Below are positions 24,758 to 47,784 of a stretch of 64,000 nucleotides of DNA, one piece after another. Source of the DNA: an uncultured Bacteroidia bacterium (GTDB lineage: Bacteria > Bacteroidota > Bacteroidia > NS11-12g > UBA9320). The stretch spans positions 890,713-954,712 of the forward strand of contig OX044357.1 in NCBI GenBank assembly GCA_943846675.1. The letters run 5' to 3'. The number at the start of each line of letters is the position of its first letter. Within the stretch, counting starts at the first letter, position 1. Both the position numbers and the translations under genes were made by a program. The notes beneath the pieces were generated by a model. It was not told the DNA's origin and searched no databases. It worked only from the letters and a program-made list of their open reading frames with translations.

Positions 24758-24809
24758 CATTGACTGTAAGTCTTCAAACTAATGTTTACCAGAGATAGTC
24801 AAAATTAAG

Positions 24810-25787: not shown

Positions 25788-25801
25788 ATACTTTTTGAAC
25801 T

Positions 25802-26896: not shown

Positions 26897-26953
26897 TGTA
26901 CGTCTTCAGCGAAAGTTGAACTTTTTGAGTGAAAAACTAAGAGAGAGTTCATG

Positions 26954-29449: not shown

Positions 29450-29519
29450 GTTGCTTTCTGATTGAGAGTGAAGTAAATTGATTAAATACTAACCTAACAT
29501 TGTGTTTGTTGGTATCATC

Positions 29520-30313: not shown

Positions 30314-31189
30314 ATGAGTCAATACAAATTTTCTGGCCACGAGACGTTTCATTGTCGTCACTTTTGGTTGAAGAAAGGGTATGATTTTAATCAACTTGGA
30401 GGGGATCAAAGGTCTAATGACGCTGTGGTTCGTTTGGGAGTTGGAAAAAACATGGTTACATCCATCCATTACTGGATGAAAGCATTTAAAGTTACTAACT
30501 CCGAATCCTCAGAAATTACTGATTTTGGGCATTTCATATTTAGCTCGAATGGCAAAGATCCTTATTTGGAAGATATTGGCACTCTTTACATGCTACATTA
30601 CAACTTAATGACCAACCTGAACCAGGCTTCAATATATTCCATAACATTTGAAGAGTTTAGAAAAACAAGAATTGACTCAGAATTCACTGCTGAGTTATTG
30701 TTCGAGTTTGTGGCAAGGAAATTAAGAGTAGAGCGTCTTGACTATAGTGAGAAATCGTTAAGAAACGACATTAAGGTCTTTCTTCGAACATATCAGACTG
30801 CAACAAAACGGGGATCAAAAAGCATTGAAGATGATTTCGCTTCTGTCCTTCTAGAGCTGAATTTTGTAAACCCAATTCAAGATACATTCATAAATGCAGA
30901 ACAGGTGTTTCGCATCAGATACGATGAACAGCCACGTCTAAGCAAGTTAATTTTTTTGCATGCCTTACTTGATAGATATGAGGGGCAAGAATCAATTTCA
31001 GTTAAAGATATCCAAAGAGATGTGTCAGATAAGTTTTTATGTAACCGAGATGGGACTGAAAAAAAACTGAATGATTTATCTGACTCGGGCTATTTGGTTT
31101 ATAAACAAGATGCTGGAAGGAAAGAAATTCAGTTTAAGTCAAATTTGAACAAATGGGATGTTTTGAAAAAGTATTATGACGAGGTTTAA
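30314..31189 (+). CDS. sspB: DUF4007-family protein, SspB-like (phosphorothioation nickase component)
   Basis: The N-terminal 'FSGHETFHCRHFWLKKGYDF' is the hallmark I associate with DUF4007/SspB. First of three overlapping co-directional genes. Confidence 0.72.
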   Translation: MSQYKFSGHETFHCRHFWLKKGYDFNQLGGDQRSNDAVVRLGVGKNMVTSIHYWMKAFKVTNSESSEITDFGHFIFSSNGKDPYLEDIGTLYMLHYNLMTNLNQASIYSITFEEFRKTRIDSEFTAELLFEFVARKLRVERLDYSEKSLRNDIKVFLRTYQTATKRGSKSIEDDFASVLLELNFVNPIQDTFINAEQVFRIRYDEQPRLSKLIFLHALLDRYEGQESISVKDIQRDVSDKFLCNRDGTEKKLNDLSDSGYLVYKQDAGRKEIQFKSNLNKWDVLKKYYDEV

Positions 31190-32240
31190 GATTTCGACAA
31201 ATATCAATCGTGATGCCAATGCTGAACTAGATTTCATTGTCACTAAGAATGCAAATGAAGTATACAACCGTATAATCCATAATCATTCAAGAGGTCAGAA
31301 TTCATTTAGTATTATTGGTTCTTATGGAACTGGAAAATCGACATTCCTGTGGGCTTTTGAACATCATTTAAACGGAGATGTCAAATTTGATAGCCCTGTA
31401 AATGGTGAGTTTAAAGGTGTTAGAAAGTTTGACTTCAAACGAATTGTTGGTGAAGGCACCTCTTTTAAGAAACGATTTTGCATTGAGTTTGGTCTAGAAT
31501 CCCTTGTCAATCAATCAAATAAAGAAGTACTGTCTGAATTTGACCTTTTATGCAAGGATATAAACTCTCGAAACAGGGCCTTAGTGATCTTGGTCGATGA
31601 ATTTGGTAAACATTTAGAATTCATAGCCAAACACAATCCAGAAGAAATGTTCTTTATCCAAGAACTTGCAGAGTTCTGTAATGATTCAAGCAAACAAGTG
31701 CTATTCATAACTACACTGCATCAGAATTTTTCAGTTTATGCTAAGGGGTTGTCAGTAGCTGAAAAAAGTGAATGGGATAAGGTCAGAGGTCGACTAATTG
31801 ATATTGCTTTTGATGAACCTGTAGAACAATTGTTATTCTTTGCCTCTCAGAGGTTGAAACATATTCAAGTACCAGAGCTTTTAAAAGTACCGTATTGGAA
31901 ATTTGTTAAGACAATAGTAAGTTCACAATTACTAGGTAAGAGCTTGTCAAAACAAAATGACACGCTTGACAAACTGTTCCCGCTTGACCCTCTTGCTGCT
32001 GATATATTGACCAAATCACTCCAGAGATATGGCCAAAATGAGCGCTCCTTATTTACATTCTTGGAGTCACAAGAGTTGTCTGAAAAAATTGAACATCAAA
32101 TAGTATTCACTGTTCCAGATTGTTTTGACTATTTGATTCAGAATTTGTCATCGGAAGTAGAAAATGGTGAAAAAAAACCCTTTCAAGCCACAATGGAAAG
32201 CAGCTGTCTTAGCTTTAGAGAAAGCAGAGATTTTATTTGA
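31176..32240 (+). CDS. sspC: P-loop NTPase, N-terminal part of an SspC-like ATPase (frame ends just after an A8 tract)
   Basis: Walker A 'GSYGTGKST' and Walker B 'LVILVDEFGKH'. 14-nt overlap with the upstream gene. Confidence 0.62.
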   Translation: MTRFKISTNINRDANAELDFIVTKNANEVYNRIIHNHSRGQNSFSIIGSYGTGKSTFLWAFEHHLNGDVKFDSPVNGEFKGVRKFDFKRIVGEGTSFKKRFCIEFGLESLVNQSNKEVLSEFDLLCKDINSRNRALVILVDEFGKHLEFIAKHNPEEMFFIQELAEFCNDSSKQVLFITTLHQNFSVYAKGLSVAEKSEWDKVRGRLIDIAFDEPVEQLLFFASQRLKHIQVPELLKVPYWKFVKTIVSSQLLGKSLSKQNDTLDKLFPLDPLAADILTKSLQRYGQNERSLFTFLESQELSEKIEHQIVFTVPDCFDYLIQNLSSEVENGEKKPFQATMESSCLSFRESRDFI

Positions 32241-34428
32241 AAACGAATATAATGATGTTGCTAAGTTACTTAAAACAATTTGCCTAGTAAATATCTTTTC
32301 TAATGCCAATGGAACCTTAGATCTAGATGTATTGAGTGGGTATGCAAAATCCATTTTGGGTGTACCGAATCCAGAAGTAATTATTGACAAACTCATCACA
32401 AAACGCCTGATAAAATTTTCAAATTACCGTTCAAAATTTAATTTTATCGACGGAACGGATGTTGACATAGAACAGGAATTAATCGATGCATCTCAGCATA
32501 TTGAAAGTGAACTTAACTTAATTAGTAGGTTAGAGTCTTACTTTGATTTTGGCATTATCCCAGCCAAAAGAATTCAGTTTGAATTTGGCACTCCTAGATT
32601 TTTTCAATTCAAATTCTACGACGATTGGTCATATGAGGAACCCACGAATGAAATTGACGGACATATTAACCTGATTTTCACCAAGAAGCGCATTCTAAAA
32701 TCCATACAAGAAAAGGTAGAAGTTATTTCACCCGCACAAGTTTTTGTTTTATTTAAAGAGATAGACCAAATTGAGGACACCATTTTCGAAATTGATAAGA
32801 TTAACTACGTAATTCACAAATACAGTGAAGATAAAGTGGCTCTAAGAATTTTGAATGAAGAAAAGCTTTTCCGAACGAATCAATTGAAGTATTTCGTCGA
32901 AGGTGCTTTATTTGGGAAGGAATCAAAAGTTTCATGGATTTGGAATTCTACAATAGATGAACTTAATAAAGGTAAAAAGCGATCGATATACTCCTACAAA
33001 GCGTTGAACAAGCTTTTGTCAGATGCAGCTCAACAAGCTTATCCCAATACGCCGCAGTACAGGAATGAAATGGTTAATAAGGAGTTTTTATCTTCTCCTA
33101 TATTAACGGCTCGAAAAGCATTAATTCGTCAAGTTATCGCCAATGGAGATAAACCGAATCTAGGCTTTGATGAAAAGAGATTTCCACCGGAAAAGACCAT
33201 TTATTTATCCTTACTTAAGGAGACAGGGATTCACAAGTCCGAAGATGGAAGGTATTTCTTTGGGAAACCTCAAGATGTCACTTTACTACCTCTTTGGAAT
33301 GTTTGTGAAGCCATTTTAAAGTCTTCAAGCGAGTCAATTACTTCAGTAACCGAATTCTACAAGAAATTGCGTAAGGCTCCCTTTAAACTGAAACAGGGGT
33401 TTTTAGACTTTTGGATTCATTTATTCTTAGTAATGAAAAAAGAAGATTACGCACTTTATTACAATAGTGAAGAATACGTGCCACATCTATCTAGTGACAT
33501 GATGGATCTTATTTACAAACACCCTTCAAAGTACTTTGTAAAGGCACTATCTGCAGATGGTGTGCGCTCCGATTATCTTGGTTTCTACAAAGAACTGACA
33601 GGTTTCAATGAATCAGACATAAGTGGTTTGGAATCTAGTTATATTACAATTTACGGGAACTTTTTAAGATTTTATAGAGGGCTAGAGGATTACACGAAAA
33701 AAACCAAAACTGCACTGTCTAAAGAGGCTCTCGGTGTCAGGAATGCAATTGCAAATGCTAAAGACCCTGAGTCAGCATTATTTACAGGAATTCCAGAAGC
33801 TCTAGGTTATTTCAAAATAGAAAAATCTGATGAACAATTACATAGTTTTTTATTGGATCTACAAGGTGCTATAAAAGAAATTAGAGGAGCATATGATCAA
33901 TTAGTTGAGCAGCTAGAATTACAAATTAAGGAACATTTAAAAATTAAGGTTAATAGTTTCACTGAAATGAAAGAACAACTCACTATGTTGTTCTCTGGAA
34001 TCAATAAAAACTTAATTGCTAATGACAAGTTGCGTATTTTTTATACGCGCGTCGTTTCCCCCTTAGATGTAAAAAAAGCATACTGGGAATCTTTATGCGA
34101 CTCGGCTATTGGCAAAAAGCTTGACCAGATTAATGACGAGGAAGTACATTTGTTGCTAGATCGAATAAAAGGGAACTTTAGTACTCTACTAGATCTTGTC
34201 GACATTCATACAGTCGAATTAAAGGATCAGGAAGAAATCGTTCAGTTTGCAATTACCAAACCCTCAGGAGAAAACAGCATCAGACGAAATCTTATTGTTT
34301 CACCAAAGATTACGAAGAAGTCAAAAGAAGTGCAGAAGCGGATTGAACAGTTACTAGGAAACGAAACGATTGTGAACAAATTAGCACTCATAAGGTTATT
34401 AGAGAATGAATTAAAGAAGAATGACTAA
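32164..34428 (+). CDS. sspC: C-terminal part of the SspC-like protein (754 aa, helical)
   Basis: Opens in the +1 frame at the A8 tract (32170-32177). Removing one A fuses it to 31176-32240, giving ~1080 aa. Overlaps the sspD-like start by 8 nt. Confidence 0.58.
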   Translation: MVKKNPFKPQWKAAVLALEKAEILFENEYNDVAKLLKTICLVNIFSNANGTLDLDVLSGYAKSILGVPNPEVIIDKLITKRLIKFSNYRSKFNFIDGTDVDIEQELIDASQHIESELNLISRLESYFDFGIIPAKRIQFEFGTPRFFQFKFYDDWSYEEPTNEIDGHINLIFTKKRILKSIQEKVEVISPAQVFVLFKEIDQIEDTIFEIDKINYVIHKYSEDKVALRILNEEKLFRTNQLKYFVEGALFGKESKVSWIWNSTIDELNKGKKRSIYSYKALNKLLSDAAQQAYPNTPQYRNEMVNKEFLSSPILTARKALIRQVIANGDKPNLGFDEKRFPPEKTIYLSLLKETGIHKSEDGRYFFGKPQDVTLLPLWNVCEAILKSSSESITSVTEFYKKLRKAPFKLKQGFLDFWIHLFLVMKKEDYALYYNSEEYVPHLSSDMMDLIYKHPSKYFVKALSADGVRSDYLGFYKELTGFNESDISGLESSYITIYGNFLRFYRGLEDYTKKTKTALSKEALGVRNAIANAKDPESALFTGIPEALGYFKIEKSDEQLHSFLLDLQGAIKEIRGAYDQLVEQLELQIKEHLKIKVNSFTEMKEQLTMLFSGINKNLIANDKLRIFYTRVVSPLDVKKAYWESLCDSAIGKKLDQINDEEVHLLLDRIKGNFSTLLDLVDIHTVELKDQEEIVQFAITKPSGENSIRRNLIVSPKITKKSKEVQKRIEQLLGNETIVNKLALIRLLENELKKND

Positions 34429-35539
34429 AGTCAAACACATATTAGGTATTTCGGGTGGAAAAGACAGTGCGGCGCTAGCTTTGTACTTAAATCAGACTTC
34501 ACCTGAAATGGACATAGAGTATTACACTTGCGACACAGGGAGAGAATTAACTGAGACATATAAGTTGATTGACAGGCTTGAGAGTCGAATGGGTAAGTCA
34601 ATCAAAAAGCTAGATGCCGTTGATGTAAACAGTGTCGTGGACCAAAGTCCTTTTGACCATTTTCTTTCTTTGTATGGGGGGTACCTGCCATCATCTACCT
34701 CACGTTGGTGCACAAAAAAACTAAAACTAGAACCCTTTGAAAAATACATAGGGGATGAACCGACAATCTCATATGTTGGGATTCGAGGGGACGAAGACAG
34801 GGACGGATATATTTCAAAGAAACAAAGTGTACAATCAATTTTCCCATTTAGGAAGAATATCTGGAGCGAAGATGTTAATAGATTAGTCCTTGCCAATCAA
34901 AACCAAAAGAACTTTGAGACAATAGCCCGTAAAGTAATAAACCCTTATTATCTGGATAAAGTTCTCCAATTTGCTCAATGTCCCATTGATGTAAATTTTA
35001 ATCTAAAACAAAAATTGAATGCACTACTTGATGTAAGCATTAAGTCCTACAATCAAATTGTATTTGAATTTCTGAAAGAGACAGATTACCCTGTTGGTCA
35101 ACTAGATTCTTTTCCACTGGTTGAGAATGAAGATAATTTAGTCCTGGAAGATATATTCAAAATATTGAATGAATCTGGAGTTGGAATACCAGCGTATTAC
35201 AAGCCTTTGAATTATGAGGTGGAGATAGATGGAGAAAAGAAACAGGGAACATATAGCAGAAGTAGATCGGGATGTTTCTTTTGCTTTTATCAACAGAAAA
35301 TAGAATGGGTATGGCTGCTAGAGCATCACAAGGAACTTTTTGAAAAGGCGATGCAATACGAAAAGGATGGATATTCCTGGATGGATAGTGAAACACTTGA
35401 AGATTTAAAACAACCAGAACGCATTGAATCTATTAAAAAAGAACACTACCTGAGGATGAATCGAAATAGTCAACAGAAGTCCTGGAAAGACCAAATTCTT
35501 GAGGCCGATGGCGAAGGATGTGCTAGTTGTTTTATATAA
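34421..35539 (+). CDS. sspD: PP-loop ATP pyrophosphatase / PAPS-reductase-family protein, SspD-like
   Basis: 'GISGGKDSAA' PP-loop. C-terminal Cys clusters 'SGCFFCFY' and 'GCASCF'. Confidence 0.8.
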   Translation: MTKVKHILGISGGKDSAALALYLNQTSPEMDIEYYTCDTGRELTETYKLIDRLESRMGKSIKKLDAVDVNSVVDQSPFDHFLSLYGGYLPSSTSRWCTKKLKLEPFEKYIGDEPTISYVGIRGDEDRDGYISKKQSVQSIFPFRKNIWSEDVNRLVLANQNQKNFETIARKVINPYYLDKVLQFAQCPIDVNFNLKQKLNALLDVSIKSYNQIVFEFLKETDYPVGQLDSFPLVENEDNLVLEDIFKILNESGVGIPAYYKPLNYEVEIDGEKKQGTYSRSRSGCFFCFYQQKIEWVWLLEHHKELFEKAMQYEKDGYSWMDSETLEDLKQPERIESIKKEHYLRMNRNSQQKSWKDQILEADGEGCASCFI

Positions 35540-35540
35540 A

Positions 35541-36506
35541 TTAACTTTTATTCTTAAAATAAATAACCTCACTTCTTGCACCTGGCACATTCCACGAATA
35601 GTTATCGTCGAAGTAACAAATCCATACGTATAGAATCTTTATATAGTTGTTTAATTCAAAACTTCTAGGAGTGGGCACCGTCGTGGTATTATCAGAAAAC
35701 CACCTTCTTACTGCTCCAAATTGCATACTACCGCTTCTATCAGGATTCCTATCATTTGTACATAATTTAATAGCTTCCTTAAATTTCTCTATAAAGGGAT
35801 GTTGGTTAAAAACGTTTTTCAAATGATCAAAAAATTCAATTTCACTCAAGTCAATAATTATTCGATAGAGCTCTAGATCATGAGCGGCACAATCCATTTC
35901 CAACTCATTTTGTATTTCCCCAGAATATATTTTATATAACAATTCTGGGGAAGAAGTCATAGGCAATTGGTTGATGAGAAAGTAATCGTCAGTAGGCGGT
36001 GGTGTAGGAAGAGAAGGATAATCTACAACGGGCATTTCCACAGCGTTAACTAGATTTCTTATTTTTTTATAAAGTTCTTTATCTACATATTCACTTTCCA
36101 GAATAATCTTGTTAAGATAAGTTCTATCCGCAAAACTAAGTTTCTCGTTTAAGCCATTGAGTTCAAAATTGTATTCTCCTTTTTCCCCAACCCCTCTGCC
36201 AGTTACATTTGCCGAACCAAAAAACAAAGAGGTATGATTATCCCAAAAAGCTTTTAAATGAATTCTAGTGTTTCTATAAAGTGCTATGTTATTTTGCAAA
36301 CAATAATCATACAAATGAATATCGCTTACCCCTAAACACAAGTCACCTATTTCCCATCTTACGACAATTTGATTTATTTTTTTTGATTTATTTAATGTTT
36401 CAAGTTGAGCCATCTTTACATACGCAGAAAACAGGGTAACGTGATTAGAACTATTTATATAATTTAGTGCACCATGTTCCAAATTATCTCCGCTTCTATA
36501 CAACAT
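35541..36506 (-). CDS. phospholipase-D-family (single HKD) nuclease with an unrecognised C-terminal domain
   Basis: 'HLKAFWDNHTSLFFGSAN' has H-x-K and G-S-x-N spanning the canonical 18 residues. The ~170-aa C-terminus is unassigned. Its stop codon is 1 nt from the sspD stop. Confidence 0.75.
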   Translation of the reverse strand: MLYRSGDNLEHGALNYINSSNHVTLFSAYVKMAQLETLNKSKKINQIVVRWEIGDLCLGVSDIHLYDYCLQNNIALYRNTRIHLKAFWDNHTSLFFGSANVTGRGVGEKGEYNFELNGLNEKLSFADRTYLNKIILESEYVDKELYKKIRNLVNAVEMPVVDYPSLPTPPPTDDYFLINQLPMTSSPELLYKIYSGEIQNELEMDCAAHDLELYRIIIDLSEIEFFDHLKNVFNQHPFIEKFKEAIKLCTNDRNPDRSGSMQFGAVRRWFSDNTTTVPTPRSFELNNYIKILYVWICYFDDNYSWNVPGARSEVIYFKNKS

Positions 36507-36549
36507 GATCTAGTTTAAGTTTGTAGCTTTATATTTCAATCTACCAATA

Positions 36550-38203
36550 TATGATTTATCCTGAGTTTTTCCCTGAAGACAGAGACGAATGAAATTGCTG
36601 AAAAAAAAGTATTTGAGCAATTAAAACGTATTTCAGACTACTTATGATATTTTCTATTCGAGAAAATTTATTACTGACGGTATAGGGAAAAAACCAGAGT
36701 ATGAAGTAGACTTTATCATTGCAATACCGGAGAAAGCCATTATTTGCCTAGAAGTTAAGGGTGGTATTATTAATTACTCTGGCAGCTAAAGATCAGTGGA
36801 CTCAAAACAGTAGACTTATGAGTAAACGACCAGATAGCCAAGCCTCATCTGCTTCACGCACGCTTTAATTAAAGGCTTTTCTGGTTTAATTGGTGATATG
36901 GCAATTGGGTGGGGTTTGTGTTTCCCAGATGGAGACCTTGGCTCTAAGGCGTTACCCGCCTCTATAGATTCTAACCAGATTATAGACCAATTAGGGGTAC
37001 TACATATAGACAAAGCCTTAGAGTTTCTTTTTGATTTTGTGAAAAAGCAAAATTCACACAGGCTGGGTGCTAGACGTTGGATGTACAATAAATTTAAAAC
37101 CGAACTACTCAGAGATATTGGTTTTGTTCAAGTATTAAGTACAAGAGTTAAGTATAACGAGCGTAATTTTATTGAGTTAACAAATACTCAGATATCTGTA
37201 TTTAATCGCTTAAAGGGTAATAAAAATATTATTACTACAGGCCCCGCAGGGTCTGGCAAAACCATTATCGCCAAAACACTTGGCACAAGATTTGCTATAA
37301 AAGAGGCAAAAGCGTGCTTTATTCTTATGCTTTAATAGAACCTTGGCAAATAAAATACGCTATGATTTTGATAGAGATGAGATCCGGTCATTGAAGTGGC
37401 TACCTTTCATTCCTTTCGCTAGGAAAATCATTGACCTTTACGATGCACACGCTGGTGGAAGGATAACAGCTCTTCTGAAGATTTTTGGGAGTTAGATGTG
37501 CCTGTAAAATTGGAGGAATGTCTCGCCTTTTTATCAAGATACACATTTGATGCTATCATCATCGATGAAGGACAGGACTTTAAAGAACTTTGGTTCGAGT
37601 TAATTTTTAGTTTAGGACATCCAAGACTGCCGGCAAGTACATGTATTTATGGATCGAAATGCAGGACATTTTTGGGCATTTCACCAAAATACCTAATGAA
37701 GACACTTTTATTCAAGTATAACCTACCTGAGAACTGCCGTAATACAAAAACGATTGTCAACTATTTGTCGCAGGCCATTGCTCAAAGACATTAAAATCGT
37801 TTGCCAAATAGTCCTGAAGGGTGAGGAGCCGTGGTGATTAAAAGTCCTTTACGAACCAATTAGAGCAACAAAAGTATGTCCTATTGGATGAGATTAAAGC
37901 GTTAGTACAAGAGAGCAGGGCATAAATGCCCAGAGCAAATACTAGTATTACTGAATTCTAGTAAAGCAGACAGTTGTTTGGGAACCACCACAAAGGCAGG
38001 CAAACTTAGAAATTAAAGCCTTAGATAACAAAGGTCGTTTTCAAAGAGATGCTGTAAATTATACGACTATTAACACTTTTAAAGGCTTAGAGGCAGATAT
38101 CGTTTTTATTGTAGATGCAGACAAAATACCTTTAGAACAAAAACACGAGAAGCTCTATACAGAAGCTTCTCGTGCTAGACATAAGTTGTATGTTTTGAAT
38201 TAG
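36550..38203 (+). pseudogene. NERD-domain / UvrD-like SF1 helicase, multiply frameshifted
   Basis: Fragments occur in three frames: NERD 'EYEVDFIIAIPEKAIICLEVKGG', Walker A 'TTGPAGSGKT', 'IIIDEGQDF', 'NCRNTK', 'INTFKGLEADIVFIV...EASRARHKLYV'. At least five frame breaks or stops. Confidence 0.75.
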
Positions 38204-40153
38204 TTATTTTATATTATCGCTTTCATTGGTTATATGCTCTTCCCAATATTGTGTGTCAACTTGTATAGATCCATTTTTTATGAATGACTCTAGTCTATCA
38301 CTTATTTTTCTCAAATAAGAATTTAAAATATGCTCAAGTTCATTATCATCTTGAATCATTTGTTCCATTTCATAAGCGTATGAGCAAATTAGCATTTCAA
38401 TGGCTATTGTAAACACACTGAGACTTTTATTTTGTTTTAATGGGTCAATAATATTCTTATAATAAATATGTTCCGTGTTTATAAAAGTGATTTTTTTACC
38501 TCTAACAGTTGTTAGTTCAAATAAGTTCCCGGTTGGATTATTATGATAAAGAACAATGGTCTTATTCATTCCAGCAGCAAAATTTTCAACTTGAAAAGTA
38601 ATAGACTCTTTTGAAAGGTGCATAAATCTTGTTTTCAGGAAACCTATTAATTCAACTTTCTGCTCTTTTGTCCATTCTTTCCCTTGCGGCATAGCCCTAA
38701 TAACAGCAGGTTCAGCTACCGGTAATGGGGTAGCTTCTTCATCTTCACTTGCAAGTGCGATTGCTTCTTTTTCCTCCCCTTTATATTGCCTCCAATAGTC
38801 TCTTCGAAAGCCTCTCATTTTTTCTATACAATCTTTAATTTCATTTGATATTTTATTGAACAATAATTGCTGTTGCTCGTTTACCCCAATGTTATCAATC
38901 TCTGATATATCCGCAGTCTCCTCATTTGAAACATACCGAAAGTCAACATGTTGCTTTTGATAATCTACACCCATCAAGTTATCTAGTTCACTGTCAAATT
39001 CAACTTCTATGGTCCAAAATCTATTAGTTTCATCAGTAACGGTATACATACCATAACTCCCACAATCTATTTCCCTTTTGGTACGTATAAAAAATATGTT
39101 TGCGCTAGTAAAATCTGATCCGCCACTCATTTTTTCACCGATTTTCCTACCCAAAGATGTTGCACCACCTTTTGAGTTTCCAGGATAAACTAGACTTTTT
39201 GTACCAAAAGCGGCTCTTATTGTGAAATAATATGCTTTGCCACCGAGTTCAATGTCGTACCGAACGTTCCAATAATCATCAAACTTTTGAAAGAGAGGTA
39301 GCGTTGTTTCATTTTCTTTACACCCGTCTATATACTTTTTGTAATGATAACTTGATGTGAACTTTTCGTTGTTTGGCACTTTAAGATTAAACATATTTCT
39401 TTTAGGATTTGTTGCTGCATCCCAAACAAAATCAGTGATGTAAGTTTTTTTCGTAGACAAAAATAATGGGTCATAGGGCAACACATTTTCTAAAATATCG
39501 TATTCGTTATTGCCTTTCAATATTGAGCCAAATGTAATTTCAAGATTTTCTTGTAGAGCATATCTATACAATCTTCCTGTTAACTTTTTAGTTTTATCAA
39601 TAACCGTTTTAGGTCTTCTTGAACCTAGGTTTTTAATTTTCGACCACCTAATTATGGTACTTGCATTAACTAAATCTATACTCACCTTAATACCTTTAAA
39701 TTTTGGTGTTTTTGCAACAGCATCATCATAACCCGGCTCTGGCCTAGTAGCTTGGTCATCTAAATCTAGGACAACAAAATTCCATTCACCTGATTTTTTA
39801 TCTTTGGAATAAACCTCTACTCTTCTTCCTACATAGATGGACGAATTGGGTAAGCCTACACCAAAAGTTCCAATTCTTTCGTTTGACGTTCCTGCCCCAT
39901 CAGCAAATCTTAAGCATCCATTAATTTCGTCAAAAGTCATTCCAGATCCATTGTCTATAAAAAAGACATCTGAAATAAATCTAGATCCCCTGCCACCTTC
40001 AACCCTCTGTTCCTCGACAAAAGTAATATCAATATTTGTCGCTTTTGAATCCACAGAATTATCAATGATTTCTGCCATTGCATATATTGGGCTTTTGTAC
40101 CCTGAATTAACAAGTTTTTCTACAAAGTGGTTTCCGTATAAATTATTTGCCAT
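38204..40153 (-). CDS. GHKL-superfamily ATPase (HATPase_c_3 / MORC-like), 649 aa
   Basis: Bergerat-fold motifs 'EIIDNSVDS' (N box), 'IDNGSGM' (G1), 'GTFGVGL' (G2). Last gene of the minus-strand operon. Confidence 0.8.
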   Translation of the reverse strand: MANNLYGNHFVEKLVNSGYKSPIYAMAEIIDNSVDSKATNIDITFVEEQRVEGGRGSRFISDVFFIDNGSGMTFDEINGCLRFADGAGTSNERIGTFGVGLPNSSIYVGRRVEVYSKDKKSGEWNFVVLDLDDQATRPEPGYDDAVAKTPKFKGIKVSIDLVNASTIIRWSKIKNLGSRRPKTVIDKTKKLTGRLYRYALQENLEITFGSILKGNNEYDILENVLPYDPLFLSTKKTYITDFVWDAATNPKRNMFNLKVPNNEKFTSSYHYKKYIDGCKENETTLPLFQKFDDYWNVRYDIELGGKAYYFTIRAAFGTKSLVYPGNSKGGATSLGRKIGEKMSGGSDFTSANIFFIRTKREIDCGSYGMYTVTDETNRFWTIEVEFDSELDNLMGVDYQKQHVDFRYVSNEETADISEIDNIGVNEQQQLLFNKISNEIKDCIEKMRGFRRDYWRQYKGEEKEAIALASEDEEATPLPVAEPAVIRAMPQGKEWTKEQKVELIGFLKTRFMHLSKESITFQVENFAAGMNKTIVLYHNNPTGNLFELTTVRGKKITFINTEHIYYKNIIDPLKQNKSLSVFTIAIEMLICSYAYEMEQMIQDDNELEHILNSYLRKISDRLESFIKNGSIQVDTQYWEEHITNESDNIK

Positions 40154-40158
40154 AGTTA

Positions 40159-40770
40159 TTAATTATTTAAAGCTATTGTTTCTAGTAAGTTGTAATTTTC
40201 TAGTTTTGTTCTGTTGTCTCTTGTTAAATAAATTGTGTTGTTTTTATTACCTCCATTTTCAGGCCCTCTCATAGCTCTCCCTAGAATTTGTAACGCTGTT
40301 GTAACAGAATCAATATTTGCTAGTATCATTATGGAATTTAAGCCTGGTACGTCAATGCCTGTTGCGAGTATCCTCTCATTTACAATAATTGAAAGAGAGT
40401 CTTTGGTGCTACCTAAACGTTTTAAATAGTCTCTCCGATTTGCAGTGGGTGTTTCACCGACGATCAATTCATTTTCAATATCTTGCGATCTTAGATAAAG
40501 ACTTAAAGCAATGGCATGGGCCTTAGATTCTGCAAAAATTATCGTGTTTTCCCCTTTTTCAATTAAATTTTTACAGGTCTGATTTACACTTTCATGCAAT
40601 CCTTTATAATATGCTGATTTGTCAATTAACTTGTTACTCTTTTTTTCTGATGCCTCATTTATAACTTGATATTCAATATTAGATAAATAGTTCCTTTCTA
40701 TTAAATAATCGATCGGGCTAGGAACACTATTGTTGTCCTTATCTACTAATTGCAAATAATTATTAAACAA
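40159..40770 (-). CDS. SF2 helicase C-terminal (RecA2) domain; probably the 3' part of one frameshifted gene
   Basis: 'ILATGIDVPG' (motif V) and 'QILGRAMRG' (motif VI). TTG start in the ORF track. The frame stays open upstream into the preceding ORF. Confidence 0.7.
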   Translation of the reverse strand: MFNNYLQLVDKDNNSVPSPIDYLIERNYLSNIEYQVINEASEKKSNKLIDKSAYYKGLHESVNQTCKNLIEKGENTIIFAESKAHAIALSLYLRSQDIENELIVGETPTANRRDYLKRLGSTKDSLSIIVNERILATGIDVPGLNSIMILANIDSVTTALQILGRAMRGPENGGNKNNTIYLTRDNRTKLENYNLLETIALNN

Positions 40771-40775
40771 GGCCT

Positions 40776-41753
40776 TTAAAGTGCCAAATTCATCATCATC
40801 GGCTCTGAGCGGGTGGTAGCAGTTAATCCTACAATTTTAGGGTTGTTATTAAGTTTGATGTATGTATTAAAAATTTCTTGATACTGTTCTGCACCTGTGA
40901 AGTGTGCTTCATCGATAAATAAATAATCTAAATTCTTAATGAAATTTAAATCTTCATCAGCATTGCTATTAACTCTAGGTGTTAAGAGCTGAAAAGAAGC
41001 AAAGGTTATTTTGTCAATTTTATCATTATTAAAACTATTAAATCTATCCCAATATCTTTGGGCCATAACTAATCGATCTCCTTTTTGTTTCCAGATTTTT
41101 TGAAATGATTGTAAACTTTGTTCACAAAGTTCTTTTGAGTTTACAACCCACGCAATATTTAAGGGCAAGTCATTATTATGATTCCTAAACAAATCCACAA
41201 TAGTTTCCATTGCCAAAACCGTTTTTCCAGCACCTGTTGGCATTGTAACTAAGGTTTTGTTTGTATTATAGTTATACATGGCATTAAGATGTTTGGATAA
41301 GTTCTTTTTTACTCTTAATTGGTATGGATGCGGAAAGGCGTTTGTACCATTTGATTCTCCATATATAGGTATGGCATATTCAAAACTAGTCCTATTATCA
41401 TCAACCTCAATCGGTCTATATGACTCTTCAATTTTAAAATCTTGGAAAAACCGATTTATATCATTATTGTATACGTTAATAGCGTTGTCGTAGATATCGT
41501 CTTGATTCCCATCAAAACCTAAATCCATTAATGTGCTTGGAGCTAAAGCTTCTAAGAGTTGAGATCTCAACTTAGTATTATTAACTAAGTTAATTCCGTT
41601 ATGCAGAGCAACGGCTGTATTCAAAATTTCTCTAGGTAAGGCTTCGTTATCATTATTAACGAAAGTATATCTTATAATTTTAGTGGTATTATCACCTAAT
41701 ATTTTAGACTTGTCCTTATCGCTTAATTTCTTAATTAAATCATTTAGTCCCAT
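40776..41753 (-). CDS. SF2 DEAH helicase N-terminal (RecA1, ResIII-like) domain
   Basis: 'MPTGAGKTVLA' (I), 'LFIDEAHF' (II), 'GLTAT' (III). Ends 'TRSEPMMMNLAL*', whereas the +1 frame reads 'DDDEFGTLKALFNNY...' into the next ORF. Confidence 0.75.
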   Translation of the reverse strand: MGLNDLIKKLSDKDKSKILGDNTTKIIRYTFVNNDNEALPREILNTAVALHNGINLVNNTKLRSQLLEALAPSTLMDLGFDGNQDDIYDNAINVYNNDINRFFQDFKIEESYRPIEVDDNRTSFEYAIPIYGESNGTNAFPHPYQLRVKKNLSKHLNAMYNYNTNKTLVTMPTGAGKTVLAMETIVDLFRNHNNDLPLNIAWVVNSKELCEQSLQSFQKIWKQKGDRLVMAQRYWDRFNSFNNDKIDKITFASFQLLTPRVNSNADEDLNFIKNLDYLFIDEAHFTGAEQYQEIFNTYIKLNNNPKIVGLTATTRSEPMMMNLAL

Positions 41754-43015
41754 AATTCATTTTCAATTCTAAATATTACATTCTCAACTAATAAATGCGC
41801 TTCAGGGGATCCAAGTCTTCGTTTTTCCTCATTCATTATTCTGGTCACTGCCAGCAACACGTTTTTACTGTCCTTAACGTTAGTTCCTTTCTCATCACTT
41901 ACAGTTCCAGTTATCCTGAATGATGATAAAAATGTCTCAAGGGTCTCTCTCTCAACCTCATTTGTATCACAAAAAGAATCAATTAGTTTGGCCTTCCCTT
42001 TGCTAATTATTACTTCAAAGTTCGTAGAGGGTGAAATAGTAATGCAGTTGAATAAAAATGTTTCATTCAATATTTCGTTTTCCAACTTTAGTGTTCGACA
42101 TAGACCCCATAGTTTAACTATTGTTCTAAAATCTTCTATTTTTAGTAACGCGTGTAAGTAATGACAGATCGCTATTTGCCAAAAACGGACATTAAAATAT
42201 TCAATTGCAAAGTCATTCTCACTAATCTTTTCATGCAAAAATTCTAATTCCTCAGAAGTTACGATCTCATCTTCAAACACCAAATGGATAATATTGTCTA
42301 AGTAGGGATTATTATGATGAAGTGACGCTTTAGCCTTTTCTAGTAACTCGGGAGAGAACCCTAACTCTTTAATTTTACCTTTTAAAAAACTCTCTTCAGT
42401 TTCGGTTATGGTATTGTCACGTACAATACTATTGACCAAATTATCAAACTGGTAATTACCTGTTTTTACGTTTATATAATTCTTGTGCACTTCTTCTTTA
42501 AGCTGACTTGCTAAATCCATTGACCCTATTCGGCCACTAAGCTCCTTACTATATATTGATTCGCTCTCAGTCCAACTATTAGGTGTTACAGAACTGATAG
42601 GCTTCTGATCTTTCAAAGTATATGTCCAGGTATCTCTGTTATGGTCAACTTTGCTCTTTAAAGAGCCATACAAAAGCTTGCTTATTTCAGGTCGCGAATA
42701 CCTCAGATTATATTTTTGAAAGAGAATATTTCTTATTTCCTTAGCCTGTTTGGGTCTACCATTTTCTGATTTGAGAATTTCTAAGACTAATGCCCTTAGC
42801 TCATTATTTTGAACCTTTATCTCATGATGGACTTTATTCAGTTCCTCTTTCCGCCTTTTGCGTTCTATTTGGTCAGCTGTAAAGTGAATTTTATATTCCT
42901 TATGAATTATTTTCTGTATTTCCGAATTATTAGTCCCCGAATCTATTAATTCCACAATCCTATGGTTGTATGTTTTAAAGTTTGATTGCTTAGTCTTAAA
43001 CCTAATTTCTTTCAT
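41744..43015 (-). CDS. hypothetical protein (423 aa) with an internal TerB-like repeat
   Basis: Two ~25-aa motifs sit ~50 aa apart: 'DNTITETEESFLKGKIKELGFS' and 'EDEIVTSEELEFLHEKISENDF'. Overlaps both neighbours (14 nt and 10 nt), so it is translationally coupled. Confidence 0.5.
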   Translation of the reverse strand: MKEIRFKTKQSNFKTYNHRIVELIDSGTNNSEIQKIIHKEYKIHFTADQIERKRRKEELNKVHHEIKVQNNELRALVLEILKSENGRPKQAKEIRNILFQKYNLRYSRPEISKLLYGSLKSKVDHNRDTWTYTLKDQKPISSVTPNSWTESESIYSKELSGRIGSMDLASQLKEEVHKNYINVKTGNYQFDNLVNSIVRDNTITETEESFLKGKIKELGFSPELLEKAKASLHHNNPYLDNIIHLVFEDEIVTSEELEFLHEKISENDFAIEYFNVRFWQIAICHYLHALLKIEDFRTIVKLWGLCRTLKLENEILNETFLFNCITISPSTNFEVIISKGKAKLIDSFCDTNEVERETLETFLSSFRITGTVSDEKGTNVKDSKNVLLAVTRIMNEEKRRLGSPEAHLLVENVIFRIENELWD

Positions 43016-44069
43016 GACTTATAGATATCCTAATTGCGTTAAAGATAGAATTAATAGCTTTCAAAACATGTGAATCCTCTATAACACTTGAATTGCAAGC
43101 GCTTCCAGTGGATGCAATAAATTCTTTACTTTTCATCATTAAGAATTCATCAGCCTCAATGTTATTTAAAGAAATACTTAAAATGTGTGGTGCAGTAGGT
43201 ACAGTGGTGAAGTTCACTTTTCCAAGGTTTTGTTCAGTGAAGTACTTTTCCCATTTCTCCCTTTCTTCGTATAGGCGGGCCTCTCTTTGATCAAAATCTA
43301 TATGGGCAATTTTACAAGCCTCTCCGAAACCAACTATTAATGGGGTATTGTATGTTCCTCCTCTCATTCCTTGCTCCTGCCCTCCTCCATGAATTAGTGA
43401 TTCTAATTTTGTACCAGATTTTACAAATAGAGCACCCACGCCTTTAGGCCCATTCATCTTATGTGCAGATAAGCAAAGCATATCAATTTTATCTCTAAAA
43501 ACATTAACACTAACCTTACCTATAGCTTGAGTTGCGTCACAAAAGAAACAAATCGAATTATCTCTAGCAATCTTTCCAATACCTTGAATATCCTGGACAA
43601 CACCAATCTCATTATTCACATACATAATGGCGATAAGCGCGGTGTTTTCAGAAATAGCATTCTTTAAGTTGGTTAAAGAAATCAACCCATTTGAATCAAC
43701 ATCTAAATATGTTACCTCGTAACCTTTTGTTTCCAAATACTCGCAAGTGTTTAAAACTGCTTTATGCTCAGTTTTAACCGTTATAATGTGTTTGCCTTTA
43801 CTAGGATTTGCTTCTAAATATCCTTTCAAAGCCCAATTGATCGCTTCAGTAGCACCTGAGGTGAAGAAAATCTCGTTACTCTCTGCGTTTATGATTTCAG
43901 CAACATAGCCTCGCGCTTTTTCAATAACTATTTTAGCTTCTTTACCATAAACATGATTGCTACTAGCATTTCCAAATCTTTCATCGAAAAAAGGAAGCAT
44001 AACCTCTTTCACTCGTGAGTCAACTGGAGTGGTTGCGGCGTTATCCAAATATATTGGTCTTTTTGTCAA
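43002..44069 (-). CDS. cysteine desulfurase (class V aminotransferase; NifS/IscS/DndA/SspA-like)
   Basis: 'LDNAATTP', PLP-lysine 'SAHKMNGPKG', catalytic loop 'STGSACNS'. Confidence 0.9.
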   Translation of the reverse strand: MTKRPIYLDNAATTPVDSRVKEVMLPFFDERFGNASSNHVYGKEAKIVIEKARGYVAEIINAESNEIFFTSGATEAINWALKGYLEANPSKGKHIITVKTEHKAVLNTCEYLETKGYEVTYLDVDSNGLISLTNLKNAISENTALIAIMYVNNEIGVVQDIQGIGKIARDNSICFFCDATQAIGKVSVNVFRDKIDMLCLSAHKMNGPKGVGALFVKSGTKLESLIHGGGQEQGMRGGTYNTPLIVGFGEACKIAHIDFDQREARLYEEREKWEKYFTEQNLGKVNFTTVPTAPHILSISLNNIEADEFLMMKSKEFIASTGSACNSSVIEDSHVLKAINSIFNAIRISISHERN

Positions 44070-44137
44070 TGGTTTATAGCTGCTAAGGTAAACATCTCAT
44101 TTAATTTACGTGGACATTGATCTCACATTATTTAGAC

Positions 44138-45208
44138 TTATTTAACCCCAGTGTTAGTCGGATACGCCCTCCAACCGAATACATTTAAGGCTGTTGAGTC
44201 AAGCCCCCTTTTTACATATTGCATATAAAGTTCGGGGTTTTCCTGTTTGAATAGTGTTTTGTCAAATTCTATTTTACTTTTGGGTTCACGTTTCCAACCA
44301 CACAAACCATCGATGCCCTCAGAGTTCCCTACAAGAATCTTTAATCGGGCTTCTAATCTTAAATAATCCCAACTATAGTTATGCTTATTTTTTTGAAGTT
44401 CGATATACTCTTTATGTAACTCCTCCAGTTCTCCTGTGCGCGGCACCAAAGCATCTTCATCTATTAGGTCAACCTTAATCTCTAATTTCGGTAGACCGTT
44501 CTTTTTTAAGTATAATTCAGGTTCTGTATCTTTTAAGCTTTTTTTACCCTTTAATGTAAAACTGCCAGATACTGGAGAAATCTTGATTGTCGCGTATTGC
44601 TCGTAAATACCTGGATTTTCAGCAGCAAAGGTATTCTTGTCAAAAGAATCTGTACCCCTTCTGATGACGTGTTTAGCAATGCCATCAATTGAACCAGACA
44701 TTCCAAGGATAAGTCCAATTTGAGATCGAATAATGTCAATTAGAGTTGCATTTCGATCCATTTCCACTTTCAACGAAATTAGATCTCCCCATAACTCTTC
44801 AGCTAACCTTGATGCAGAAATCATTTCCCCATTGGATGCCACATTTGCGAGCTCATAACTTTTTTCAAGGTCATCTTTGATTTCATTTTGCTCAGTGATC
44901 AATTGTTTTGCGATATGGATTGCTTCATCCATTTCAGTTATTGTCATATCAAACCATTCACCAGTAATCCATTTGCTCCCAAATTTATAGTGTAAATGGG
45001 TTTCGAGGTGCTCGACAAAAGGAGAAATGAGTGAACAATAGTCGTATATATTCCTAGGATTTCCTGTTTGGTGTTCCTTTATCCGCTGCTCTGTTTCTTT
45101 TGAATCCCTGACCAGCCCTATTTTAACATATCGAGTTGTTTCTTGGGATAAGAAGTCTTTTTCTCTAAGGAAATAAAGACGCCCACTTGTTAGTTTAACT
45201 TTTGCCAT
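44138..45208 (-). CDS. T5orf172 (GIY-YIG-like, MUG113-type) domain protein with a duplicated C-terminal module
   Basis: N-terminal 'GRLYFLRE...YVKIGLV...RIKEHQTGNP...GEWFD' pattern. C-terminal repeats 'FDKNTFAAENPGIYEQY' and 'FDKTLFKQENPELYMQY'. Confidence 0.6.
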   Translation of the reverse strand: MAKVKLTSGRLYFLREKDFLSQETTRYVKIGLVRDSKETEQRIKEHQTGNPRNIYDYCSLISPFVEHLETHLHYKFGSKWITGEWFDMTITEMDEAIHIAKQLITEQNEIKDDLEKSYELANVASNGEMISASRLAEELWGDLISLKVEMDRNATLIDIIRSQIGLILGMSGSIDGIAKHVIRRGTDSFDKNTFAAENPGIYEQYATIKISPVSGSFTLKGKKSLKDTEPELYLKKNGLPKLEIKVDLIDEDALVPRTGELEELHKEYIELQKNKHNYSWDYLRLEARLKILVGNSEGIDGLCGWKREPKSKIEFDKTLFKQENPELYMQYVKRGLDSTALNVFGWRAYPTNTGVK

Positions 45209-45269
45209 CCTTTGATTCTAATTAATCTTCATGGTTTTAATTACATTTCAAACTGATTGGAAAACTTAT

Positions 45270-46055
45270 TCATTCATTTCTGTGAGACAAATATTCGATT
45301 TTAGGATGAAGCCTTTTGTCTTTAGGTAAAAAAATATTCTTTCCATTTAAATCAATTGTAAGTCTTCTATCAACTAAATGATATTCACCTTCTTCTTCTA
45401 ACATATCTCTATATTCAATTTTATATTTAGAATTTATGGTTATCCAATAATTATCAAATAGTTTATGATGATTGGAGCAAAGAAGAATACCATTTCTAAT
45501 GTCTAGCCTTTGCTGGCTGGTTGCAGCTGACCAAGGTATTATGTGAGACGCGTCTAAAACGAATTCAAATTCAAGTCCGCAGAATGCACACCTAGAATCA
45601 TATGCAACTAATAGCGCTTTTCTGAAAATTGATTGCGCAGCACCTCTCGATTTTACAATCCCATAAATTTCTTCGGATTTTCCTGGATCATTGATTAATC
45701 CCATAATGAGCTCATCCTCAGAAACCCCTGAGAGGGCAAATTCAAACGGATTCTGATGCTCACCCCAGTTGAATTCATAGACTTGTTTTAAACCACTTTC
45801 AATATCATCTGCATCCCAGGCTACAAAACCGTCTCCTGGCTTCCCTTCAAGTTTATTAACAACAAGTATACTAAGTGGTGGCAATTCGTTAACAAGGCAA
45901 TAGTCCTGAATTAATCCTAGTAAATGTCTGACTGGCCTGTGGTGTATTCCGATTCTTACTCCTAATTCACCATATGTAATTAATTTATTTTGACTTGCAA
46001 TTTCAGTAAGAACATCCCATCCTTTTGCAGCTCTTTCATGATGATTTATTTTCAT
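45270..46055 (-). CDS. HNH endonuclease with an N-terminal wHTH-like domain
   Basis: 'CAFCGLEFEFVLDASHIIPW...NGILLCSNHHKLFD'. Confidence 0.8.
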   Translation of the reverse strand: MKINHHERAAKGWDVLTEIASQNKLITYGELGVRIGIHHRPVRHLLGLIQDYCLVNELPPLSILVVNKLEGKPGDGFVAWDADDIESGLKQVYEFNWGEHQNPFEFALSGVSEDELIMGLINDPGKSEEIYGIVKSRGAAQSIFRKALLVAYDSRCAFCGLEFEFVLDASHIIPWSAATSQQRLDIRNGILLCSNHHKLFDNYWITINSKYKIEYRDMLEEEGEYHLVDRRLTIDLNGKNIFLPKDKRLHPKIEYLSHRNE

Positions 46056-46384
46056 TATTTGCTCCTAATTAATCCGTTGGTCTAAATCACGTACAGCTTA
46101 TTTATATCTCAACACCTTCGATAGAGTTTATGTAAAAAAATAATTTAAATAAAAGATGTTTGCCATTTCCAAATATATGTGTTTTAGCAACTTACAATTG
46201 TATCTAAAACAATACAACAGTCTATAATACATATGAATTTCATCAGGCAACAAGATTATTAGAGGTTCTAACACTGTAAAATGTCAGCCTAATGTTTACC
46301 ACTTAAGAGATAAAGTTAAGTAACAGTTTATTATCTTGAAAGACGTCTTTCAAGGCTTTATCAAATCTTAAAAAGTAAATAATA

Positions 46385-46747
46385 ATGGGAAAAGTAGGAA
46401 GACCAAGAAAAAGAACAGCCGAATCAGTTGTAAAAGACATCAGAAGACAAACCAGAAGAAAGTTCAACTCTGAAGAAAAAATCAGAATCGTCCTTGAAGG
46501 ATTAAAAGGAGAAGAATCTATTTCAGAAATCTGTCGTAAAGAAGGCATAGCACCAGCACTTTATTATCGTTGGAGCAAGGACTTTATTGAAGCGGGTAAA
46601 AAGCGTTTAAATGGAGACACAGAGCGTAATGCCAATACCGGAGAAGTTAAAGACCTCAAGGATGAATCGCAGAACCTTAAACTCGTTGTAGCAGAGCAAG
46701 CTCTTGAAATCAGAGTACTCAAAAAAAGCTTGCGTGGTCTAGAATAA
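46385..46747 (+). CDS. IS3-family transposase OrfA
   Basis: Identical 120-aa product to 25802-26164. Confidence 0.9.
   Translation: MGKVGRPRKRTAESVVKDIRRQTRRKFNSEEKIRIVLEGLKGEESISEICRKEGIAPALYYRWSKDFIEAGKKRLNGDTERNANTGEVKDLKDESQNLKLVVAEQALEIRVLKKSLRGLE
46721..46728 (+). promoter_or_regulatory. probable -1 programmed frameshift site A AAA AAG
   Basis: I translated the -1 frame across the site. It is open ('KKLAWSRIKFKKYMRFTQ...') and runs into orfB. Confidence 0.6.
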
Positions 46748-46761
46748 AGTTCAAAAAGTAT

Positions 46762-47739: not shown

Positions 47740-47784
47740 CTTAATTTTCACTATCTCTGGTGAACATTAGTTTGAAGACTTACA

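Follow-up and report, generated by a model that had tools for sequence, protein, structure and literature searches.

In published Ssp systems, SspABCD alone suffices for phosphorothioate (PT) modification of DNA (PMC8092258). A census placed a known effector, either SspE or SspFGH, in only ~15% of sspBCD clusters (PMC8092258), and papers dated 2025–2026 give only these two as Ssp effectors. Pbe has been described in the literature as a partner of Dnd, not of Ssp, and Dnd/Pbe systems have been proposed to cleave DNA not marked as self (PMC10853773). The pairing of paraMORC ATPases with superfamily 2 (SF2) helicases and nucleases in restriction–modification contexts was described by Iyer, Abhiman and Aravind in 2008 (PMC2292703). 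Here, we report an ssp locus with another set of candidate effector genes in a 64,000-nt stretch of contig OX044357.1 from an uncultured Bacteroidia bacterium (hereafter, the window). Positions 30314–44069 of the window most likely constitute a single Ssp-type PT restriction–modification locus, in which sspBCD on the plus strand converges with a minus-strand arm encoding SspA, a 423-aa protein, an SF2 helicase, a GHKL ATPase and a phospholipase D (PLD)-like nuclease, with the remnant of a NERD/UvrD gene between the last two.

A reading made from the sequence alone (the sequence-only reading) had proposed that four genes at 38204–44069 form a restriction module, and had placed sspBCD ~8 kb away. 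That span is one half of a DNA sulfur-marking (Ssp) defence locus, and sspBCD is not a separate locus: it ends (position 35539) only 2 nt from the PLD gene of the effector arm. The proposed boundaries also left out the PLD gene, which is the conserved third partner, and took in the 423-aa gene, which is not conserved. We consider the locus to be probably an Ssp phosphorothioate restriction–modification system with an ATP-dependent helicase–GHKL–PLD restriction arm.

Modification genes and the proposed effector arm

All four modification proteins were identified by profile searches. SspA matched the PADLOC SspA (2e-139) and DndA (1.3e-137) models and Pfam Aminotran_5 (1.2e-72), confirming the cysteine desulfurase that had been placed at the operon head. 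SspB matched PADLOC SspB (6e-80) and Pfam DUF4007 (1.4e-67), and SspD matched PADLOC SspD (5.5e-85) and Pfam PAPS_reduct (7.9e-8). The sspC gene is frameshifted, and its two halves matched the PADLOC SspC model PDLC02776 at profile positions 2–323 (3.6e-109) and 322–1038 (3.3e-210); on the sibling contig L136, SspC is encoded by one open reading frame (ORF) of 1083 aa with a PADLOC SspC match at E = 0. The locus encodes an SspA/IscS-type desulfurase together with SspB, SspC and SspD.

On the effector side, sspA overlaps the 423-aa ORF by 14 nt, the 423-aa ORF overlaps the helicase start (41753) by 10 nt, and the GHKL gene follows 5 nt past the helicase stop (40159), as the sequence-only reading had it. 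These overlaps, together with the profile matches given below, agree with its proposal of an operon in which sspA comes first and is closely coupled with genes for an SF2 helicase and a MORC-like GHKL ATPase. The packing and the coordinates of the four-gene run were correct, but the run does not consist of four intact genes: the helicase, whose frameshift had been missed, is split into two ORFs in different frames (Table 1).

For comparison, 55 loci were drawn from one-genome-per-species contigs solely by two GHKL peptide patterns, and were scored by tblastn with the window proteins and by clustering of all ORFs; the window makes 56. The helicase matched ResIII (4.9e-24) and Helicase_C (1.4e-12), in line with its earlier assignment as an SF2 DEAH helicase. 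In 53 loci, its homologs are encoded by uninterrupted ORFs (median length, 546 aa), and the sibling copy has 530 aa; the Q motif and the PTGxGKT, DExH, LTATP and QxxGRxxR motifs were conserved over 49 sequences. The best PADLOC matches were to the helicase part of PbeA, followed by type IV and type I restriction enzymes; for the intact sibling protein, the PbeA helicase part scored best (1.4e-19, 68 bits) and the type IV restriction-enzyme model reached 53 bits.

The GHKL protein matched HATPase_c_3 (1.8e-15), and its family profile matched MORC2/3/4 and SMCHD1, which bore out the GHKL/MORC-like identity proposed earlier. The protein comprises a Bergerat ATP-binding fold, a transducer domain, a coiled coil (~424–468) and a C-terminal alpha/beta domain. 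Foldseek searches with its AlphaFold2 (AF2) model (predicted local distance difference test [pLDDT] 82) returned Hsp90, Topo VI-B, SMCHD1, MutL, MLH1 and MORC2 at ~1e-10 to 1e-12, and these matches covered both the Bergerat and the transducer domains. As in MORC and paraMORC proteins, the Bergerat motifs (N box, G1 box DxGxG and G2 box GxxGxG) are followed by an S5-like transducer and the lysine K400. Over the 56 sequences, the N, G1 and G2 boxes, T166 and K400/Q401 were invariant or nearly so: E28 was kept in 55, and D31, N32, D67, G69, G71, G95, G98, G100, T166 and K400 were kept in all. A HMMER search of 1.84e9 representative proteins assigned 611 clusters (50% identity) to the family at E<=1e-30. 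MzaB of the MZA system was rejected as a counterpart, the match being confined to the N-terminal GHKL motifs (36 bits against a cutoff of 850).

The PLD protein carries a single motif, HxK(x4)N(x6)GSxN (H83-x-K85-x4-N-x6-G97-S98-x-N100), which corresponds to the PLD/HKD motif HxK(x4)D(x6)GSxN with N at the D position. Among 47 homologs, H83, K85, N100, N113 and E115 were invariant and S98 was kept in 45. The family profile matched PLD, NucT, Nuc and R.NgoVII in the PDB via the HKD motif (best 3.8e-5). The Anabaena homolog, named 'phospholipase D family protein' in RefSeq, matched the DISARM DrmC models (1.2e-6) and ZacB; Azaca (ZacB/ZacC) gave marginal matches only and was rejected. The catalytic motifs of the helicase, the GHKL protein and the PLD protein are all conserved across phyla.

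The sequence-only reading had counted the 423-aa protein, described as TerB-like, as the third member of the effector alongside the helicase and the ATPase. Its gene was found in 5 of the 56 loci, and the protein is rare (9 homologs among 5.8e9 proteins); it is a lineage-specific accessory and not part of the conserved core, which consists of the helicase, the GHKL ATPase and the PLD protein. The 423-aa protein contains an N-terminal helix-turn-helix-like region, a Z-alpha-like winged helix (~87–135), a helical domain and a conserved C-terminal tail. With its AF2 model (pLDDT 77), Foldseek returned only winged helices of the Z-alpha/Z-beta type (ZBP1 Z-beta and African swine fever virus I73R; probability 0.99), and the family profile matched I73R at E=0.003. 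The TerB-likeness is unsupported because Pfam TerB had no match at E<=10 in any of 10 members of the family and PADLOC SngA had none to the 423-aa protein. A profile search of the PDB likewise gave no TerB signal, and TerB structures were absent from the top 50 Foldseek PDB matches of the whole model (the central helical domain was not searched alone). The two D(N/G)xIT..E..FL..K repeats within the helical domain probably prompted the TerB idea.

In other Bacteroidota loci, the same slot holds highly divergent proteins that share an N-terminal motif and the C-terminal tail EEKRRxGxP..LL.EN..FRI, a pattern that suggests a fast-evolving adaptor. The NERD/UvrD fragments of the window clustered with intact 537–547-aa genes in L001, L005, L006 and L008, and the L001 copy matched PADLOC RTasNERD-Hel (2.4e-56). 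The winged-helix protein and the NERD/UvrD protein would be lineage-specific subunits, possibly with regulatory or sensor roles.

Recurrence of the module across phyla

With the window included, the GHKL family was present in 54 of the 56 loci, the helicase in 53, PLD-like proteins in 47, sspD and sspC in 46 each, sspB in 43 and sspA in 37; among the 55 GHKL-anchored loci themselves, sspC and sspD were each found in 45, sspB in 42, sspA in 36 and PLD in 46. The helicase lay immediately upstream of GHKL in 51 loci (tblastn) to 53 loci (clustering, window included). This adjacent SF2 helicase, together with the HKD nuclease gene in 46 of 55 loci, matches the operon setting of MORC/paraMORC ATPases. 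Most of the loci without ssp genes were on contigs truncated after a few kb.

The 55 loci belonged to Flavobacteriia, Chitinophagia and Sphingobacteriia among Bacteroidota, to Clostridia and Bacilli, and to the archaeal Nitrosopumilaceae, as well as to Alpha-, Beta- and Gammaproteobacteria, Leptospirales, Dehalococcoidia, Nitrospinota, Thermodesulfobacteriota, Verrucomicrobiota, Myxococcota, Bdellovibrionota and Chlorobiota; Cyanobacteria and Actinomycetota were added by an SspD-anchored search and a plasmid search. In Clostridia, the genes run in a single direction in the order sspD-B-C-A-helicase-GHKL-PLD; several other phyla have sspA-B-C-D-helicase-GHKL-PLD, and Bacteroidota have a convergent arrangement like that of the window. 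The gene set is kept while its order shuffles, and the seven genes form one operon in many loci. The spacing within the effector arm is operon-like, with a median of -7 nt from helicase to GHKL (<=50 nt in 48 of 49) and -1 nt from GHKL to PLD (<=50 nt in 36 of 36).

Within 10 kb, ssp genes accompanied the module in ~80% of the 55 loci against a background of ~3% of genomes carrying sspBCD (PMC12914056), and the association is therefore not explained by chance or by clustering in defence islands. This co-occurrence extends the link to PT genes, which had been proposed from the window, far beyond its source genome. It also bears on the possibility that the three effector genes are an autonomous paraMORC-type restriction system, lying beside ssp merely by island clustering. 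Two loci with full flanks (L023 and L027) carry helicase–GHKL–PLD without sspBCD within 10 kb, and combinations of paraMORC, SF2 helicase and nuclease exist with other partners (PMC2292703). Autonomy is nevertheless very improbable given that the co-occurrence spans >12 phyla, that the set persists through shuffled orders, that the junctions with ssp genes overlap or are very short, and that ORF clustering revealed no methyltransferase conserved in the 56 loci.

The cassette is also carried by conjugative plasmid A of Anabaena (Trichormus) variabilis ATCC 29413 (L142, NC_007410.1, 324041–338165; AVA_RS27530–27570) in the order sspB-C-D ... helicase-GHKL-PLD-sspA. RefSeq names the three effector proteins there only as 'DEAD/DEAH box helicase', 'ATP-binding protein' and 'phospholipase D family protein'. 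The stretch from sspD to the helicase gene also holds two small ORFs and a gene for a 768-aa protein with a DndB annotation; upstream lies a gene for a 'DNA phosphorothioation-associated putative methyltransferase'. Genes for DndB-like proteins (DGQHR motif) and small GIY-YIG-like accessory proteins recur in L009, L010, L026, L028 and L053.

Relation to named systems and proposed mode of action

In PADLOC v2 and NCBIfam (June 2026), the helicase–GHKL–PLD arm matched no specific model; TIGR04095 (dnd_restrict_1) was rejected, with 28.7 bits against a cutoff of 600. No paper linking Ssp to a GHKL/helicase/PLD module was found in the open-access full-text literature. The fallback of the sequence-only reading, an undescribed effector linked to PT, is consistent with everything observed here. 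The locus shares with SspABCD–SspE and SspABCD–SspFGH the modification module, all four proteins of which gave strong PADLOC matches, and the combination of a PT writer with an exchangeable effector in one locus. SspE, which joins DUF262 to an HNH-type nuclease, is unrelated to the effector here: no PADLOC SspE match (DUF262 + DUF1524/HNH) was obtained in the ten proteins scanned at 30314–46055, with models that do function, as an SspE-like protein was detected in L057.

The sequence-only reading had raised equivalence with Shango (SngABC) or with SspFGH. A superficial three-gene likeness with a helicase and an ATPase exists, and for Shango it includes a match of the helicase to SngC at 3.7e-4 to 6.6e-7 (26 bits for the intact sibling protein). 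This match covers generic helicase motifs and falls below the PbeA, type IV and type I models, and no match to SngA or SngB (PADLOC) or to TerB (Pfam) was obtained; unlike in Shango, no TerB-domain protein was identified. In the published description of SspFGH (PMC8092258), as in V. anguillarum FF-93 (A1QU_04845–04855), SspF shows a Walker A motif only, SspG is an unknown protein and SspH ends in an FtsK/SpoIIIE-like domain, and none of the three has a helicase or GHKL domain, whereas the effector here consists of an SF2 DExH helicase (ResIII/Helicase_C), a MORC-like GHKL ATPase (HATPase_c_3) and an HKD nuclease; SspFGH was set apart by this published description only. Identity with either system is hardly credible.

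The PbeABCD systems, or CxC-ABC-ATPase-centred systems, are Dnd partners that likewise place an HKD nuclease, an SF2 helicase and a large DNA-manipulating ATPase beside PT genes. Among PADLOC models, the helicase of the window comes nearest to the helicase part of PbeA, and sister Bacteroidota Ssp loci hold PbeA/PbeC-like genes in the same slot after sspA. The present locus differs in that the HKD nuclease is separate, the ATPase is of the GHKL/MORC and not the ABC type, and a DndE-like PbeD is absent; PbeA models matched only the helicase part (1e-8 to 1e-19), and PbeC had no match. DISARM (the DrmA helicase, DrmB, the DrmC PLD nuclease and a methyltransferase) also joins a helicase and a PLD-family nuclease to a modification module, but no homologs of DrmA, DrmB or DrmMI/MII were found here at meaningful scores, the modification is PT and not methylation, and a GHKL protein is present. 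In the paraMORC systems too, a GHKL-transducer ATPase is encoded alongside an SF2 helicase and a nuclease, which can be of the HKD type, within mobile operons resembling restriction–modification systems, and their ATPase has been proposed to loop or clamp DNA between mark and cleavage site, as we propose here. They are tied to DNA methyltransferases with no mention of PT (PMC2292703), whereas this locus is tied to backbone phosphorothioation by SspABCD. Pbe, DISARM and the paraMORC restriction–modification systems are the nearest counterparts in logic, and the window cassette has a MORC-like GHKL ATPase in place of the ABC ATPase and an unfused HKD nuclease.

From what is known for these families, SspA would mobilise sulfur from cysteine, and SspB, SspC and SspD would mark host DNA with single-strand PT; the position of sspA as first gene of the effector operon would couple the sulfur supply for self-marking to effector expression. 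The SF2 DExH translocase, the GHKL ATPase and the PLD nuclease would form one ATP-dependent restriction complex, in which the MORC/MutL-like ATPase would probably dimerise on ATP, clamping or looping DNA, and the single-HKD nuclease would probably act as a dimer. The complex would load on DNA, and ATP-driven translocation and clamping would license PLD cleavage of DNA lacking the host PT pattern; PT-marked self DNA would be spared, in analogy to DndFGH, SspFGH, Pbe and DISARM. We infer restriction of unmarked DNA from the sister Ssp loci with PbeA/PbeC-like genes, which follow the same logic of nuclease, SF2 helicase and ATPase.

Several points weigh against this reading. The window copy is frameshifted in sspC and in the helicase gene. 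Since L023 and L027 lack nearby sspBCD, the module may work alone or with ssp genes elsewhere. Profile and fold searches identified no PT-reading domain in the three core proteins. The direction of discrimination (attack on unmarked DNA or activation by PT, as in SspE), a role in phage defence and dependence on PT are all drawn from analogy. Furthermore, in a second sample of 80 further loci anchored on SspD, helicase–GHKL(–PLD) was clear in 6 and partial in ~4 more; with only ~6–10 of 80 loci carrying it, the module would be one of several Ssp partners.

Among the other SspD-anchored loci, a long helicase was found in 27 of 80, GHKL without an adjacent helicase in 9 (including 5 with a different GHKL directly after sspD), a helicase fragment only in 1, and none of these classes in 37. 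In L057, sspA is followed by genes for a PbeA-like HKD-helicase (PADLOC E = 0), a PbeC-like ABC ATPase (3.6e-23) and a small protein. This sample, with GHKL cassettes in some loci and PbeA/PbeC-like cassettes in others, indicates that Ssp loci exchange analogous effector cassettes.

Further variants were noted in the same sample. The loci with a long helicase include L056–L062, L066–L068, L071, L073, L077, L081 and L083–L085, many from Bacteroidota and some from other groups; where ORFs were listed, the helicase (715–765 aa) stands after sspA or sspD and is usually followed by proteins of ~710 aa and ~150–190 aa. In L063, L064, L065 and L074, a different GHKL protein (589–600 aa, then a ~160-aa protein) comes directly after sspD with no helicase, the L063 copy matching MzaB-type motifs at 4e-16, and L088 has a 762-aa GHKL protein directly after sspD, also with no helicase. 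The GHKL proteins of these five loci may represent another GHKL-based Ssp partner. Between PLD and sspD, L006 (13118–15220) and L038 (12832–14865) encode a ~700-aa protein with a DUF262-like DGQQR motif; the best PADLOC match of the L006 protein was PDC-M55C, and no SspE model matched it.

The main rival to restriction of unmarked DNA is an effector that, like SspE, senses PT and is activated by it. Such an effector would depend on PT-marked host DNA to be turned on, and would then nick or degrade phage DNA or cause abortive infection, unlike a classical restriction enzyme, which PT would block. SspE works in this way within the same modification system (PMC8092258), and GHKL/MORC ATPases have been discussed as responders to epigenetic marks (PMC2292703). 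The DUF262-type protein beside the module in L006 and L038 also speaks for this rival: these loci would have two candidate effectors per sspABCD, as reported for SspE with SspFGH. The three core proteins contain no detected DUF262/ParB-like or sulfur-binding domain, however, and an SF2 translocase with an HKD nuclease is the set of type I/III-like systems, DISARM and Pbe, of which Dnd/Pbe is proposed to cut DNA not marked as self (PMC10853773). We regard PT activation as unlikely, yet as deserving some weight.

The position of the effector genes inside the ssp operon, such as sspC-sspA-helicase in Clostridia and helicase-GHKL-PLD-sspA in Anabaena, raises the further possibility that they serve modification or maintenance (scanning, unwinding, repair of PT sites or mark turnover) rather than defence, particularly as MutL-like GHKL ATPases and helicases cooperate in repair (PMC2292703). 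Such a role is improbable: SspABCD is enough for modification in published systems (PMC8092258), most sspBCD loci have no such module, the slot is elsewhere taken by PbeA/PbeC-like or SspE-like DUF262 genes, which are described defence effectors, and the loci lie in mobile, defence-type islands.

The helicase, MORC-like GHKL ATPase and PLD nuclease may constitute an undescribed, widespread class of SspABCD-coupled effectors, with a MORC-type ATPase acting on an epigenetic mark of the DNA backbone; we put this at slightly less than an even chance. If true, the class would range from gut Clostridia and marine Flavobacteriia to ammonia-oxidising archaea, cyanobacteria and Streptomyces, and would be the prokaryotic counterpart of eukaryotic MORCs that act on chromatin bearing epigenetic marks. 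Part of the ~85% of sspBCD loci without a known restriction partner would also be explained. A conserved partner with explicit enzymatic parts (translocase, clamp ATPase and nuclease) is a directly testable candidate for another share of sspBCD clusters. Like Dnd, Ssp swaps analogous effector modules, pairing an HKD-helicase with an ABC ATPase at some loci and using separate helicase, GHKL and HKD proteins at others. The module occurs in cultured and partly genetically tractable organisms (Anabaena variabilis ATCC 29413 plasmid A, Streptomyces and Flavobacterium), and would offer a simple system for studying cooperation among a MORC-like ATPase, a helicase and a nuclease as well as the reading of PT marks.

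State of the window copy and its surroundings

The helicase frameshift is a 2-nt insertion (CA, ~40814–40815; +2) inside motif III (GLTAT|PLRA), which converts GLTATPLRADDDEF to GLTATTRSEP...stop, and that of sspC is a +1 change from A7 to A8 at 32170–32177. With both genes frameshifted, the window copy is either inactive or mis-assembled. An identical GHKL protein is encoded by nine other contigs, of which six were retrieved, and in these siblings each gene was intact where spanned: a 530-aa helicase on three contigs, a 1083-aa SspC on three and a 537-aa NERD/UvrD protein, encoded between GHKL and PLD, on four. An intact form of the locus thus exists in nature.

We aligned the sibling contig L136 to positions 29010–50155 of the window. 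Relative to L136, the window has 24 insertions (1–3 nt) and ~70 substitutions that all fall in 36584–38005, inside the NERD/UvrD gene, in addition to the +2 in the helicase, the +1 in sspC and a +1 at 30078 (intergenic). Two 1-nt deletions and 74 substitutions lie at 29.0–29.9 kb, at the edge of the shared region, and the substitution cluster at 29010–29999 may mark a recombination boundary; elsewhere, there were only three substitutions. Between 30 and 41 kb, this amounts to 27 insertions and zero deletions. Bacterial pseudogenes usually show a deletional bias. The pattern runs contrary to that bias and looks like local assembly or consensus error; the differences of the window look like local consensus noise and not natural decay.

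The features of the locus are listed in Table 1. The terminator-like hairpin was found by a consensus scan 28 nt past the GHKL stop codon. A sigma-70 promoter scan gave 50 sites against 44 expected, with a consensus that does not cover Bacteroidota promoters.

Table 1. Coordinates of the features of the Ssp locus in the window
Feature	Position	Strand	Description
sspB	30314..31189	+	DUF4007; DNA-binding/nicking subunit of the PT modification complex
sspC	31176..34428	+	Orc/Cdc6-BrxC-like ATPase; two ORFs here, 31176-32240 and 32164-34428
sspD	34421..35539	+	PAPS-reductase-like ATP pyrophosphatase
HKD/PLD-superfamily nuclease, 321 aa	35541..36506	-	Single HKD motif
NERD + UvrD-like helicase gene remnant, accessory	36551..38203	+	ORF fragments 36898-37335 and 37498-37794
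Terminator-like hairpin	38142..38176	-	14-bp stem followed by a T run; consensus scan only
MORC/MutL-like GHKL ATPase, 649 aa	38204..40153	-	HATPase_c_3
SF2 DExH helicase/translocase of the type I/III restriction (ResIII) kind	40159..41753	-	ORFs 40776-41753 and 40159-40770
423-aa accessory protein, lineage-specific	41744..43015	-	Z-alpha-like winged helix
sspA, pyridoxal phosphate-dependent cysteine desulfurase	43002..44069	-	First gene of the effector-side operon

The locus lies in a low-GC island at ~18 to 51 kb (GC 0.33–0.36, compared with 0.40–0.42 in the flanks) and is bracketed by copies of an IS3-family (rve) transposase at 24765–26274, 26954–27928 and ~46274–47783, two of which are ~98.7% identical over 1.5 kb. 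Between two of these copies lies part of a ResIII helicase gene, a truncated fragment at 26247–26957. Upstream of sspA, a 356-aa protein with an N-terminal T5orf172/MUG113 (GIY-YIG-like) domain is encoded at 44138–45208 on the minus strand, between an HNH gene and sspA; it was present in the sibling contigs and absent from the homologous loci of other species. The HNH gene (45270–46055, minus strand) encodes a 261-aa HNH_2 protein whose nuclease domain resembles modification-dependent type IV enzymes (PDB 6yex, 5e-11). The NCBIfam model 'phosphorothioated DNA-binding restriction endonuclease' matched this protein below its cutoff (1.3e-17), with the match limited to the HNH part; a homolog is encoded after the PLD gene in L005, and the protein is otherwise not conserved with the system.

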